From Octopus vulgaris (Eukaryota), in contig OX597830.1 in the NCBI GenBank assembly GCA_951406725.2, forward strand, positions 76,508,001 through 76,572,000: DNA of 64,000 nucleotides. Direction: 5' to 3'. Positions 3,338-62,817 of the stretch are shown piece by piece. A program made the translations under genes and the position numbers. A model generated the notes under the pieces. It did no database searches. It had not been told where the DNA came from and was given only the letters and a program-made list of their open reading frames with translations. Numbering within the stretch: the stretch's first letter is position 1; the number at the start of each line of letters is the position of its first letter.

Positions 3338-3745
<408 letters not shown>

Positions 3746-9520: not shown

Positions 9521-10091
9521 CAGCAGTTGCCTAAATATGCCATCGAGGTTAATCCCTTCAATAGCAATATGTTACGCAATATCACCATAAAAAGAAATAT
9601 TGCCGTAAGATAAATACAAACAATCTCCCTGCTATATAATCTATTATTTAAAATTCTTTGTGTGTGTCTGTGTGTGTGTTTTCTAGGATCTCAAGCATCC
9701 TCCATCCGATTGCACTAAAATTTGATATGTAGATACCGACGGTATCAGGGCGTGTATAAGTCTTGAAAAAATTACAAAAATCGATTCCAGGTGTGAATGC
9801 GATCGATAAAACCGTTTTTGTCCTACTTTTCTTCCGTGAACCTGCTTCGAAAAGCTGATGCTCAACTAATAATAAATTTATTTTTATATACATTCTACTA
9901 TAGGAAGAAGGCTTGGAATTAGGGGAAGGATGTAAATCGATTACATCGATCCCAGTGTGCAATTGGTACTTCTTTCATCGAATCTGAAAGGATGAATGGC
10001 AAAGCTGACCTCGTCGAAATTTGAAATTTGAACGTAACGAAGGTCGATAAGTTTATATTTATATGAAGACTCAATAAAGCGCTCAGTGATA

Positions 10092-10487
10092 TCTTTATAT
10101 ATAAAAGTGAAGTTGTGTGTCTGTCTCCTACGATTTAGATTCCTAACTACTCCCACATTTTGCGGTGCAGTGTAACCGAAGGCGGGTATCTTATAGTCGT
10201 GATTCATATCGAACCCTTCTGGGTATTAGCGCACGTCTACGATGAGTCTACGATTTTAAAAATAATTTACCATCATTTTTTCCATTTTAATGCATTTTTT
10301 CGCTATTATATAAGGGAGGTAACTCTCTAAAAATGTCTACGATGAGTCAACGATTTAAAAAAAAATTTAACGTCATTTTTTTTCAATTTTTAATGCATTT
10401 TTTGCTATTTTTTGGCTATAACTCACTAAAAATGCTTATATAGTTATTTCCCTTACAAACCCGAGCAACGCCGGGCGATACTGCTAG
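10092..10487 (+). mobile_element. Non-autonomous Helitron
   Basis: A|TC 5' end (tctttatatataaaag); 3' cccgagcaacgccggg hairpin then CTAG|T. Confidence 0.85.
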
Positions 10488-10863
10488 TTAGTAAATACAG
10501 ATATGACATTGTGAAAGAAAAAAGCTAGGATTTTAAAGCAAATAGATCGGCTAATGTAAACTTATAGATACAATCTATAAATGGAACGGTAAAAAAATTC
10601 AAGATTTGTTCAACATGAAACAGTTACTGTTGTTTGCATTCAAATTCTAGCGACGGTAAAAGAACCACTCCTTCTCTCTACAAAGAGCTCTACACTACAG
10701 AACAAAATACGAAAACATAGAGATATTACATACATTAAAACGTATATGAATTAACGTATCTCTGTACACTATTGTAGTGTTCAAATGTAAACAGAATATA
10801 TATATATATATCTACATACATATATATATATATATATATACATATATATACATATATATACAG

Positions 10864-18913: not shown

Positions 18914-19691
<778 letters not shown>

Positions 19692-24098: not shown

Positions 24099-25715
24099 GT
24101 TTAGTTAGTTAGTTAGTTAGTTAATTTGGCTCAAAAGCAAATAGCAAGGCCATGTAGGGGGACATGGAGTTAAGTACAGGGTGGTGTTCATGTAAAGAGT
24201 TCAGGCCACTTGAGGTCCAGGGAGGCTTTGAACAAAGCGGTCGTCGGCATCTTCACCATCTCGTCTGGCAGCTTGTTCCACGGATCCGCAACCCGGACGG
24301 AGAAAGCTCCTCTCCTTCGATTGAGATGAAATCGTCGCAGGTAGAGCTTTTCGGAATGACCCCGCAGCCGACGCTCTGGAGCAGGAGTGAAGAACAGCTC
24401 TTTCGAGAGGTTACACTTTCCGCTTATGATGTTGGTGGGCGAGAATGAGATCACCACGGCGGCGGCGTTTTTCAAGAGAATAAAGGTCGAGCGTCCTCAG
24501 CCTTTCTTCGTAGAACAAATTTTTGAGACCATGAACCATGCGGGTAGCCAGCTTCTGGACTCTTTCGAGATGTTGTATGTCTTTGAGGAGATAAGGAGAA
24601 GGGGCTTGAATCCCATACTCCAATATGGGTCTCACCAGCGTGACATAGAGTGGTAGGAATATGGCTGCTGTGAGCATTCCGAATGACCGTCGAATCAAGA
24701 ACAGAATTCCGCGTGCTGTGTTGGCAGCATGGACGCACTGGGCCGAAGGCGAAAAGGAGGAATCCACCAAGATACCCAGGTCCTTTACCTGATCGGTCCT
24801 CTCCAGCAGCAGACGACCCGGCTCGAAATCAAGTTGAGTTGCAGGAGTAGAGCCGACAGGCAGATGACAGCACTTTGACACGTTCAGACACAGGTCCCAA
24901 TCGTTAGACCACTTCCAAATTTGGTGGAGGCATCGACGAAGATCCTCTATATTACCGCGAGGAGCGACCAGTTTGATATCGTCGGCAAATAGAAGGGTGT
25001 GTTGCGTGAGGTCGTCGGGCAAGTCATTTATGAAGACTAAGAACAACAAGGGCCCAAGCACTGAACCTTGAGGCACGCCACTGCTCGCACTGGAGACGTC
25101 GGACCGCGAACCATTAACTTGGACTTGGAAGGAGCGATCTGAGAGGAAGGCACCAACCCATCGTATAATATCCGGATGGAAACTATATGCTTGAAGCTTG
25201 ACAAGTAATAGGCGGTGGTTTACCGAGTCAAAAGCTTTGGCAAAGTCCAATAAAACGATGTCAACAGCATCACTATCATCGAGGATGCGCGTCACCAATT
25301 CTTCCATTACTAGTAAGTTGGTCAAGCATGATCTCTTCGGCACGAAGCCGTGTTGGGAATCAGAGATAGAGGCTGTGTTTAGGAGGTGGAGCATCATACT
25401 TTTCTCAAGGATGGTTTCGAACATCTTGCTGATTATTGATGTAAGGGAAACCGGTCGGTAGTTAAGCGGGTCTTCGCGGCTCCCTTTCTTGAAAATTGGG
25501 CAGATTATCGCTGTTCTCCAGTCTGCAGGTATAACACCCGTCGCCAATGACATATTGAATAGTCGTGTTAAGGGCTCGCAGATGACCGGAGCCAACGCTT
25601 TGATAACCCGTGGGTGTATGCCGTCAGGGCCGTGACCCTTGTTGACATCGAGGCCTTGAATGACACGTTTGACTTCGTCCCGCGTGATGACCAATCGAAG
25701 CATTGGAGGTACCGA
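24099..25715 (-). pseudogene. 5'-truncated CR1/L2-group LINE with long open reverse-transcriptase frame, one frameshift near 24440, and (TAAC)n tail
   Basis: [57 protein letters not shown]; 3' frame RLRGHSEKL..FSVRVADPWNKLP. Confidence 0.95.
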
Positions 25716-25739
25716 TCTATCAAATATATATATATATAC

Positions 25740-25816
<77 letters not shown>

Positions 25817-25848
25817 TATATATATATATATACATACATACATATACA

Positions 25849-25917
<69 letters not shown>

Positions 25918-25923
<6 letters not shown>

Positions 25924-26740
25924 TAAAAATCAAAATAAGGGTGAAAAAATTGAATATTAATTAATAACATCAATTTAAACACCAAGTGGCCTAGCGTATA
26001 AAAGGCTGGGATACAGTAAATATTATTAATACAAAACAATAAGAGAGAATACACTATGTGGACGCTCTAACGCTAGATATAGATCCGCAAAGGGAATCCA
26101 CCACCAAGGAATTGTTCTCAAGAATTAATTCAACACGCCAAGAACGTAAGCGAGCAGTACAAATGAAAAATAACGAAAAAATAGATTAGCTCTATACAAT
26201 TGTTTCATCATTAATAAATTATGTAATTTTACATACGAGGGCAGAACGAGGGCATTTGAATGTAACTGTGAATATAATCGGCCGTACCGTTCGTCTCTGT
26301 TCAACCTCGTGTGAATTTTGACGTGCGGTTCGACAAATTACGAAAATACTTATGTAAGTTAATAAATTATGCAATTTTACTTACATAAGTATTTTCGAAT
26401 CGTCAGTAGAGTACATCAAAATATAATCTGTCGAACCGCACGGCAAAATTAACACGAGGTTGAACAGAGACGAACGGTACGGCCGATTATATTCACAGTT
26501 ACATTCAAATGCCCTCGTTCTGCCCTCGTATGTAAAATTACATAATTTATTAATGATGAAACAATTGTATAGAGTTAATCTATTTTTTCGTTATTTTTCA
26601 TTTGTCCTGCTCGCTTACGTTCTTGGCGTGTTGAATTATTTCTTGAGAACAATTCCTTGGTGGTGGATTCCCTTTGCGTATCTATATCTAGTGTTAGAGC
26701 GTCCACATAGTGGATTCTCTCTTATTGTTTTATATATATA
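25918..26740. mobile_element. Fold-back Penelope-like element (~310-bp inverted arms) in (TA)n, carrying a hammerhead motif
   Basis: Arms 26032-26340 / 26424-26731; nested 19-bp IR in the spacer; CTCTA-CTGACGA...GAAA-CAATTG-TA-TAGAG on minus. Confidence 0.75.
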
Positions 26741-26742
26741 TA

Positions 26743-27546
26743 CTAGCAGCATAGCCCGGCGTTGCCCGGGTATGTAAGAGCCCCTAGTAGGCAACGACTA
26801 ATCCCAATCTAGTCCTTTCCCTCTAGGGAACGAAGGCGCATGTGTACGTTGCAATGTCTTCTCTTCACTCCCAAATAACTATCAAACAGCTATCGATAAT
26901 TCAACCCAACCAATTCCTACCAGGAAGAAATTACATTCGAGACTTTACCCCCAACACCGCCACTTCTGCTAATAGCTGCTGCAGCCGCAAGTTATTCGAA
27001 TACTTTTTTTGTTTACACTTTCTTTATAACTACCACCCCAAACGTTTTACCTTAAATTTTTGACGTACCCTAAGGGTCCTCGGACGCTACTTGCAAACTC
27101 TTGGCTTATTATAAACCGCTTTTGTCGTGTGCATCAAAAAATCTTTTCCATTCGTTTGTTCAGTTTGGTCACTTTTGACTTTTTCGTTGTTGTCACTCAC
27201 ATTGCTGCCCGCTTTTTGCCGTTTTTGTACATTTTTATACATTTTGGGATACTTACCCCACGTGTTCCGAGAGTTAAAAAGGTCGAGTTGCGTCCCCTAG
27301 ACAGTCTGTAGAAAATGTGTTGCATATAAAAAGCTTAGATTCTCGACCCATGTCGAAATTATCGATTTTTTTTCAGAACTGGGGGAACTTTTCGAAATTT
27401 TCGCTGCGTTAGTTTTGAATTATGACATTGGGCTACGTGTGTCAAGTTTCATCAGAATCGGTTGAAAGCCGGGGTCAGGGTGAGGGTACAATCTTACAGA
27501 CACACAGACACACAGACAGACAAACTGCCGTTTATATATAGAGAGA
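26743..27546 (-). mobile_element. Non-autonomous Helitron
   Basis: Minus strand: A|TCTCTCTATATATAAA start; cccgggcaacgccggg hairpin then CTAG|T end; same 3' hairpin as 10460. Confidence 0.85.
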
Positions 27547-35905: not shown

Positions 35906-35977
35906 AATCAAAATAAGCAACAAGGATATCCAGGAGTAATGCATTACCTCTGGATATCCCTGTTGCTTATTTTGATT
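35906..35977. repeat. 72-nt hairpin at the edge of a (TA)n-flanked insert
   Basis: aatcaaaataagcaaca.ggatatccag / ctggatatcc.tgttgcttattttgatt. Confidence 0.85.
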
Positions 35978-36182
35978 TTAATCATCTTACTTCGAAATTG
36001 TATGGATAATATCGTACTAAATTCTGGTGCCTCAACTTAAGTACCATATTCATCTGAATCTAAATCATTACTTATATATATATATATATATATATATTTA
36101 CATATATTAGAAATATATATATGTGTGTCTGTCCGTATGTATGTACATATGTACGTATGTATGTATGTACATATCTATCTAT

Positions 36183-46619: not shown

Positions 46620-47442
<823 letters not shown>

Positions 47443-57742: not shown

Positions 57743-57943
57743 TCACTCACACATACGTGCGCATATGCATACATAAATACATACATGCATGCATACATGC
57801 TTGCGTACATGTATGCATACATATATACATACATATATGTGTGAATTGGTGTCTGTATTTGGGATTTCTCCTATCACTGCTTGACAAACCGTATTGTTTA
57901 GTTTACTTCCTCGATACATAGCGGTTCGGCAAAATATACTGAT

Positions 57944-58264
57944 AAGCGTAAAGTGTAACCTCTCGAAAGAGCTGTTCTTCACTCCTGCTCCAGAGCGTCG
58001 GCTGCGTGGTCATTCCGAAAAGCTCTACCAGCGACGATTTCATCTCAATCGAAGGAGAGGAGCTTTCTCCGTCCGGGTTGCGGATCCGTGGAACAATCTG
58101 CCAGACGAGATAGTGAAGATGCCGACGACCGCTTTGTTCAAAGCCTCCCTTGACCTCAAGTGGCCTGAACTCTTTACATGGACACCACCCTGTACTTAAC
58201 TCCATGTCTCCCTACATGGCCTTGCTATTTGCTTTTGAGCCAAATTAACTAACTAACTAACTAA
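57944..58264 (+). mobile_element. 3' fragment of the same LINE family as 24099-25715, inserted in a SINE B tail
   Basis: Close reverse-complement match to 24110-24427, with (TAAC)n tail. Confidence 0.92.
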
Positions 58265-60735: not shown

Positions 60736-62129
60736 ATATGGAAAGATAAATCTGTTTCCACCTGTCACACTTCCTGACTTTATATTGTATATATAACTGT
60801 ATGTATATATAATTGAGTGTGCGCATGTGTGTGTGTCTGTATGCCTGTCTTTGTTCCTTAACCACCGCGTGACAGCCGGTGTTGGTTTGTTTATATCTCT
60901 GTTATCAAACGGCCTGGCAAAAAAAAAGATAAAATAAATAAGAAAACAAAACAAATAAATAGGTGTCAAATTGTTGTATGAAATCACTTCAAAGATGGTG
61001 CCCCAGCATGGCTGCAGGTCAATAATATAAACAATTAAATGATAATATGAAAAATAAGATATAAAAAACATTTATTCTGGCATATCTTTAAAAAACGGTT
61101 TCGTTTAGACTATGTTTTTTTTATTATTTTAGTTTATTTTCACAAATTACACCGGTTTCAGATTTTATTATTACATCTGTCTTTGATTTCTTTCGACATT
61201 TCGTTTGCTATGGAAGAAGCAACTGAGCCAGTTATCTCTTGGAGACCTTCAAACCATAGAAACCGTAGAGATGCAACAAGCAAAGAATAAAGAATCTCTC
61301 TCTCTCTCTGTATCTATCTATCTCTATCTCTCTTTCTCTCTGTATATATATGTATATATATGTATATGTATATATGTACATATTATCATTAATAAAATGT
61401 TTATTTTATGCATCATATATCATCTATGGGTTTCAGATTACATAAATGCATATCGAAACTCTGCATCATCTTATCCACAATCACCACTGCGTAGTTTGTA
61501 TTCCGAACACTACCGGAGTTCGAGGTTTGATGCCCAGCATTCTACTACACTGGAAACAAGCGTGATGTGTGGGGCCTACTACTGCGCTTAAACTTAAGGT
61601 ACTATCGCCCTCACATAGAAAGACAGAAAGAAAGAAAGAATACAAATGCATAAGATTCACTACACCTGTTTCTGATGTGCGTTTTTTTAATAGTGAATAA
61701 ACTGATTATATTACAAAATATAAGCGTTTTCTTCAGGTGAATAAAAAACTTAGATTTTAAAATTCGGTTCCGAAAATACCAAGATATTGAATGTATGTTG
61801 AAAACCTCTCATTTCGGCCACATACACATGAACATATACATACAAGTTCACACACTAACATACACACATGTACAGTTACTGGTAAACCGTTACTGTGCTA
61901 AAAGATACAACCCCCAATGTGTCTCGCTTCAAAATCGAACTAGGAAGCGTATGGTTGTCAAAGAAGTTTCGTCATCATATAGCTACATTTGCAAGCATAC
62001 ACACTTGGTTTCATCACTAAATATCCGAAATGTTGCTATAGTAACGAAGCTAAGGGATCCAGAGCAAAGCCACTTGGTACAGATTGACCTTGAACTCTGC
62101 CGTGCATGTCACTAAATTTTAACATTCTG

Positions 62130-62817
62130 GTTCACTGCCGCTATTTACAGCAGTGATTGGAAGGAAGGTGTGTAGCGTGTTATCGTGGCACTGGGAATGA
62201 CAGAGAAAGTTGAGCAGAAAATTTGCATAAATTTTGCCAAAAGGTTGGTGATACCTGCTCCGCGGCTTGCGCAAAGTTTTCAAAGAGTTTTGGCATAAAA
62301 TTGGCAGACACGCGTCTCATACCCAAATTATTGGTGATAACGGACTGAAATGAACCGTACTTAATCTGCACATCCTCTGATAACTCATGGATGGTGATTC
62401 AACAATTTCCCTTCACAGATGCACACACATCTGTGATCTTTTTCTCAGTTCTGCTGGTTGCGGATTTCCCGGAACGTTCGTCAATATCGACATTTTTCGG
62501 CCTTCTTGGAAACGTCTAAACTACTCGTACAAATGTGTGCGGCTCATACACCCCTCTCAATACACTTTCTGCAACTTTGCGTAGGTCTCTCAGCAAGTAT
62601 CGCCATAACAACTTTCTGTCAGGGTCAATGCAACGATAACACGCTGCACACCTTCCATCCAAGCACTGCTGTAAACAGCGAAGGTAGCTACAACGTTAAA
62701 ACTTATTACTCATGCACAACGGAGTTCAAGGCCAATCTTTACTAAGCGGCTTTACTCTGAGGACTTTAGCTTCGTAACTATGTCAACATTCCGATTACTT
62801 ATTGATCAGACCTCGTA
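62130..62817 (-). pseudogene. Mariner 5' remnant with TIR, plus an inverted diverged 5' segment
   Basis: TA-cgaggtctgatcaataagt TIR; ETYAKLQKVY..FRRFQEGR..TIHELSEDVQIKYGS..LGMRRVSANFMPK. Confidence 0.8.

Follow-up and report, generated by a model that had tools for sequence, protein, structure and literature searches.

The locus at 25919–26741 of the window, by which we mean the whole 64,000-nucleotide stretch of DNA that was analysed, is likely a decayed, doubly inverted Penelope-type stub, carrying a hammerhead that is real in origin, split, and predicted to be dead. According to the reading that we prefer, and regard as fairly probable, it is the 3' end of a Penelope-like element (PLE) in (TA)n, inverted twice during reverse transcription, whose compact hammerhead was split by the inverted upstream flank and is predicted inactive. 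The window is animal DNA, taken to be octopus-like from its SINE sequences, rich in microsatellites and packed with retroelement fragments. The features of the locus, and of one relative, are the following.

3377–3617, plus strand: older relative from the same family, about 74–75% identical, between two (TA)n tracts; truncated on its 5' side before the ribozyme, it consists of D and T alone
25722–25918, no strand: (TA)n/(TACA)n microsatellite, likely insertion target at the element 3' end; in the 3377–3617 copy, too, (TA)n follows this position of the family
25919–26032, minus strand: tail (T), a one-sided 3' extension not in the right arm; family contigs cover T in 4 of 4 runs
26033–26340, minus strand: left arm, with inverted upstream flank Q (26340 to about 26233), P (about 26232–26207), hammerhead 3' half (H3) and downstream region D
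about 26232–26207, minus strand: P, the 3' strand of stem II
26190–26206, minus strand: hammerhead 3' half, with GAAA, palindromic stem III, GUA cleavage triplet and stem I 3' strand
after 26195, minus strand: predicted cut
26232–26236, mirrored at about 26528–26532, no strand: inversion junction J1, hammerhead loop II side joined to the inverted upstream flank, placed from family contigs
26341–26359, minus strand: R in inverted form, the 19-bp inner stem of the hairpin
26359/26360: junction J2
26360–26378, minus strand: P', the apex loop, which repeats the 3' strand of stem II (24/26 identical to 26211–26236)
26379–26397, minus strand: R, the family stem II 5' strand
26398–26423, minus strand: H5, a 26-nt one-sided bulge that contains CTGACGA and the 5' strand of stem I; the left half of the hairpin lacks it
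26424–26731, plus strand: right arm, inverted copy without tail; second GAAACAATTGTA at 26558–26569
26732–26741, no strand: (AT)5, right-hand remnant of the target microsatellite, then an unrelated repeat

A preliminary description of the locus had given it two inverted arms of about 310 bp with scattered substitutions and an extent of 700 bp (26032–26731). The arms were found as described, the left (26033–26340) pairing with the right (26424–26731) over 308 bp with 9 substitutions and no indel, but the extent has to be enlarged, since the element runs 113 nt further past the left arm, up to the (TA)n at 25919. The right arm stops at the (AT)5, where another repeat begins. Transversions made up 6 of the 9 differences, and an excess of A>G was absent. 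A second delimitation of the inverted repeat (26024–26340/26424–26740, 96%) includes AT-rich flank. The nested 19-bp inverted repeat (26341–26359/26379–26397, around a 19-nt loop) is exact, as had been claimed, but it does not sit in a spacer: when one half is aligned against the other, a single hairpin results, of which the 19-nt loop is the apex and bases 26398–26423 form a 26-nt one-sided bulge. On the minus strand the order of segments is rcD rcH3 rcP Q H5 R P' / rcR rcQ P H3 D T, where rc marks reverse complements. The right arm also holds an open frame of 69 codons (26529–26735, plus), in ribozyme sense, which begins in stem II; the ORF of a PLE can start in stem II of the hammerhead (PMC11167929).

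The two hammerhead halves of the minus strand lie where they had been placed. The 5' half consists of CTCTA (26411–26407, stem I) and CTGACGA (26406–26400), the 3' half of GAAA (26206–26203), CAATTG, TA and TAGAG (26194–26190). They are 193 nt apart, stem I has 5 bp, and the core nucleotides and stem III are intact, so that the CUGANGA, GAAA and NUH boxes and stems I and III of a type I hammerhead are found. A motif descriptor was used that asked for both core boxes, at least 5 Watson-Crick pairs in stem I, at least 2 further pairs in stem III and an insert of at most 250 nt. It matched twice in the 64-kb window, whereas 100 shuffles averaged 0.02 matches; of 1000 shuffles of the element, one gave a match. 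The second GAAACAATTGTA announced for the opposite arm was found on the plus strand at 26558; this 3' half has no CTGANGA partner on plus. Rfam gave no match at the locus at gathering score, hammerheads included. At E<=10, nine weak non-hammerhead matches appeared, of the miRNA and snoRNA kind; they are far below gathering and reflect hairpin shape or AT content.

Contigs from 4 of 24 runs (X1, X2, X3 and X12, with three organism codes) were aligned to 25919–26423 at 80% likeness, giving 869, 379, 744 and 105 contigs, respectively. X12 was guessed to be RNA, and its contigs were kept out of any inference on expression; its A>G and T>C variants recur in the other three runs. In X1, the summed depth, which is not to be read as copy number, was about 1e5 over D, about 2e4 at 26361–26394 and 290–700 at 26293–26343, most single contigs having a depth of 20–70. 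The family is high-copy and thins out upstream.

Inspection of the joints in these contigs revealed how the family ribozyme is arranged. Six of 11 joint rows skip 148–177 nt, from 26180–26224 to 26358–26373; the skips belong to seven contigs (four in X1, two in X3, one in X12, none in X2) and thus to three of the four runs, and the loose ends before 26358 consist of the hammerhead 3' half. The half-motifs therefore co-occur in other copies, where they are joined directly and enclose a stem II region of some 45 nt. The family ribozyme is thus compact, and the 193-nt insert of the locus is not an ancestral feature. In four of five strand-switch rows (26340/26423, 26312/26421, 26284/26388 and 26236/26296) Q precedes the ribozyme and points the same way; the first of these rows stands in two contigs each of X1 and X2, and the fifth row (26055/26122) is unrelated. 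Diverged Q is also present as a loose end at 26421. Contigs matching up to 26236 run on into another hammerhead 5' half and not into Q (four in X1), and three in X3 that leave at 26236 enter other sequence. The order in family sense (minus) is then Q, H5, R, P, H3, D, T, and the joints show that the insert consists of the genuine strands of stem II and of R and Q in an inverted copy. In one contig of X1 and one of X3, a head-to-tail joint from 26386 to 25984 defines a unit of about 290 nt whose core is CTGAAGA; it is possibly a retrozyme-like tandem or a pseudo-LTR tandem.

Core variants in the family (CTGACGA, CTGATGA and CTGAAGA) differ at the free position 7; in a loose end at 26392 the core is damaged and reads CCGATGA. 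At the locus the base of stem II (10.1–11.1) is U-U, as had been noticed, followed by 3 pairs; the usual closing pair, mostly G-C, is not there. The mismatch had been taken as a weakness of this copy. It seems instead to be a family trait, with U-U or C-C at these positions and then about 3 pairs in family contigs, the 5' and 3' halves coming from separate, unphased contigs. There is a precedent for activity: the axolotl hammerhead HHR_Amex2 has U-U at the base of helix II yet cleaves, 22% in 1 h as monomer (PMC7229834). Two local adjustments were considered and set aside. A bulged base after position 9 does not, by eye, rescue the 10.1–11.1 pair, and an extended stem I (26429–26424 with 26188–26183) needs a right-arm allele absent from the family letters and was not counted.

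Folding was done by secondary-structure prediction, in which tertiary contacts and help from proteins are not modelled. The hammerhead fold was predicted to lie 17.3 or 26.1 kcal/mol above the best fold for RNAs with one arm, and 214 kcal/mol above it for the whole element. When slices of the window were assembled in the compact order and the hammerhead was imposed, stem II comprised 3+4+8 bp with a 6-nt loop; this form missed the minimum-energy fold by 5.7 kcal/mol, or by 9.1 when more upstream sequence was included. The claim that arm and spacer together build a functional hammerhead is thus not borne out: in other copies the halves are about 45 nt apart, the insert is a product of inversion, and the fold is predicted to be blocked and inaccessible in this copy. 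An RNA read through the locus would, on the same predictions, form a long duplex instead of a ribozyme.

The anatomy is that of known PLE insertions in several respects. These are described as 5'-truncated, often adjoining an inverted copy, with a one-sided tail of 30–40 bp and (TA)n targets (PMC8557442), and palindromes at the inverted junction have been interpreted as self-priming (PMC3846280). During integration both target strands are extended, and two start sites give rise to the tail (PMC11167929). For the locus, our preferred reading would proceed in two steps. First, the usual head-to-head product would form, a short cDNA stopped at loop II being joined to the inverted upstream flank; at this junction, J1, segment P, which starts at loop II, meets inverted Q. 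Second, the J1-joined template would be copied from both target ends, once with the tail and once without, the template being either a re-mobilised stub or a self-primed copy within the same event. Both copies would end at stem II and be joined at J2, where the end of P' meets inverted R, whose own end is in loop II. Since J1 is present in both arms, it would have formed before J2. Q and H5 have similar ends, and slippage between these may have removed H5 from one half; the 9 differences between the arms would postdate the second fold-back. A fold-back of the same anatomy at 46945–47233 supports the Penelope-type origin. Against it count the tail of 113 nt, a stem II that is far longer and lacks G10.1-C11.1, and the lack of a linked ORF.

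The same Penelope-type origin could be combined with a later second fold-back: after insertion, the nascent strand would, in the course of DNA replication, have folded at stem-loop II, used the left half as a backward template while skipping H5, and rejoined the template in the homologous arm. We find this unlikely, although it is the main rival of our reading. It is in keeping with a half lacking H5 that reads as a copy of the half bearing it, with a J1 identical in both arms, and with common alleles of the arms at sites polymorphic in the family. However, the natural pairing of stem II would prime copying of H5 and not of R, the microhomology at J2 is just 1–2 nt, and one arm with a tail facing one without is the pattern of PLE integration.

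A different donor is conceivable, namely a non-autonomous hammerhead repeat (a non-LTR retrozyme with a tandem unit of about 290 nt) mobilised in trans, in place of the pseudo-LTR of an autonomous PLE. The head-to-tail joint in X1 and X3, with the hammerhead 5' half between, points in this direction, as do a stem III of canonical type (2 bp and a tetraloop), the U-U base of stem II shared with HHR_Amex2, and the failure to find an ORF. Yet the tandem joint amounts to one contig per run against hundreds aligned, both window copies are dispersed, fixed at one end and set in (TA)n with no tandem array at the locus, and arms inverted and tailed in this way have been described in PLEs, so that we judge such a donor unlikely. 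Animal retrozymes have themselves been proposed, in a preprint, to derive from PLEs (10.64898/2026.07.22.740005).

Palindromes are a known product of chimera formation, and a fold-back chimera, which copies a single molecule, has identical arms. That the locus is an artefact of assembly or library making is nevertheless very improbable. It is true that no contig across J1, J2 or the whole locus was found among the 32 contig pieces listed, so that the locus is not confirmed by reads or contigs (the best of the 24 listed runs contains 22% of the sampled words of the stretch), that no singly inverted parent copy was among these pieces either, and that two thirds of the arm differences are transversions. 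But each arm has private changes, one of them a CpG transition, and no indels separate the two. At 26051, 26158 and 26189 the left arm is private, nearly all family depth having the right-arm base; at 26072 and 26085 it is the right arm, the 3377 copy having the left-arm base and no variant being present among the rows listed. The one-sided tail and flanking (TA)n, as in two other fold-backs of the window, argue likewise for a genuine insertion. As a rough guide, 1.5% per arm would correspond to about 4 million years, if the octopus calibration of distance 0.09 for 25 million years applies (PMC13282606).

We give hardly any credence to a functional long-range hammerhead, whose arm and spacer would pair around an ancestral insert of about 190 nt to let the RNA cleave itself: core, 5-bp stem I and stem III are intact and a PLE hammerhead can be protein-assisted, but family contigs lack the insert and the predicted probability of the fold is at most 1e-15.

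Several other repeats were found in the window. The copy at 3377–3617, which had been described as related and devoid of the ribozyme part, is indeed so; in both copies of the window (2/2) the 3' end is fixed at (TA)n, and the 5' truncation varies. The fold-back at 46945–47233 lies between two (TA)n tracts and belongs to a different family; its arms (47018–47110/47140–47233) are nearly identical, it has a one-sided extension of about 73–89 nt, and its apex loop contains a hammerhead 3' half (minus, from 47132). A small fold-back at 35906–36073, also between (TA)n tracts, has arms of about 30 bp and a 95-nt one-sided extension, and its end has 16/17 nt in common with the 3' terminus of the family of the 26-kb locus. 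At 61655–61742 (minus) there is a second complete type I hammerhead-like motif, with a 6-bp stem I, CTGAAGA, GAAA, a short stem III and GUA; its 57-nt stem II region has no paired base, it has no Rfam match, and it is not the best fold. An older inverted pair of about 205 nt (77%) at 62007–62812 is 250 nt away from it. Inverted arms of 233 nt (98% outside the microsatellite) surround a SINE-like copy at 19012–19691, beside (TA)n/(GATA)n. The repeats at 26742–27545 and 10090–10490 occupy AT-rich sites and are alike over their first 37 nt (89%; match at 10452–10488); their ends recall those of non-autonomous elements of Helitron/Helentron type, to which they may belong. Finally, 24105–25721 (minus) holds a 5'-truncated LINE whose open frame of 436 aa encodes an RT (Pfam RVT_1, E 1.9e-32); the 3' end of this LINE recurs at 57942–58264 with 98% identity.

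No RT or GIY-YIG ORF was found at the locus or linked to the family. The 69-aa frame had no match among 109 longer candidates and was blank in Pfam; three matches among 1.84 billion representatives were translated tandem repeats and no real homologue. The pattern of the compact motif gave 0 loci in metagenomes. Three GC-rich loci retrieved with a 21-nt word and 109 viral loci retrieved with a loose motif were discarded, as none of the 112 matched beyond 20–28 nt. Among the papers listed by one literature search, none described an octopus hammerhead; Penelope families have been reported in Octopus vulgaris (PMC13282606).

As a single copy the locus is of little weight, because Penelope-like integration is expected to leave such fold-back stubs behind. 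It is useful as a fossil: its two inversion junctions both map to loop II of the hammerhead, where a second family of the window is also cut. The shared cut at loop II leads to a countable prediction on the end points of PLE cDNA and on the formation of inverted copies. The compact hammerhead of the family, with its long stem II and U-U base, is easy to assay. A bolder reading, which we hold to be rather improbable, would picture a high-copy family, probably of cephalopods, with an active type I hammerhead whose unusually long stem II is closed by a pyrimidine-pyrimidine mismatch. Reverse transcription would tend to break off at loop II, and folded stubs re-mobilised in trans would give second-generation nested fold-backs and some retrozyme-like tandem units. 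If so, the locus would preserve the traces of two rounds of PLE integration, one after the other.

The preliminary description had seen a PLE hallmark in the inverted arms. A hammerhead-derived motif in an inverted insertion of Penelope type does stand, whereas an RT and GIY-YIG ORF, the mark of strict membership, was not found. Several features of PLEs are present: a sense-strand type I hammerhead near the 3' end, compact in the family contigs, an inverted 5'-truncated copy adjoining the 5' end, and a palindrome at the junction. Direct pseudo-LTRs are not found at the locus, the head-to-tail joint of X1 and X3 being the one candidate. The locus thus likely behaves like a PLE insertion, the Penelope-type label resting on the insertion pattern, with no RT/GIY-YIG ORF linked. 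The locus resembles described insertions of EN+ PLEs (Penelope/Poseidon, Neptune, Nematis, Hydra; PMC8557442, PMC3846280) in its head-to-head arms, one-sided extension and junction palindrome, and also in its (TA)n target, variable 5' truncation and 3'-proximal type I hammerhead. It differs by two nested inversions instead of one, by a hammerhead split by rearrangement, by the length of the tail (113 nt versus 30–40 bp, one-sided in both), and by an ORF that is neither present nor linked.

Minimal PLE hammerheads are reported to have palindromic stem III, a conserved G10.1-C11.1 and opposite-strand pairs 100–700 bp apart (PMC4209133), and PLE hammerheads to be protein-assisted and dispensable for insertion in vitro (PMC11167929). 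The family is like the minimal type I hammerheads of metazoan PLEs in its CUGANGA and GAAA boxes, its stem I of 5–6 bp and its short palindromic stem III suited to dimers; its stem II region of about 45 nt contrasts with the 6–8 bp of stem II given for them, and its U-U (or C-C) with their G10.1-C11.1 (PMC4209133). HHR_Amex2 occurs in 350-bp tandem repeats giving circular RNA, whereas the copies in the window are dispersed, and one tandem joint was found in the family contigs; the two ribozymes are alike in being type I, with a two-pair stem III and tetraloop and U-U at the base of helix II (PMC7229834).
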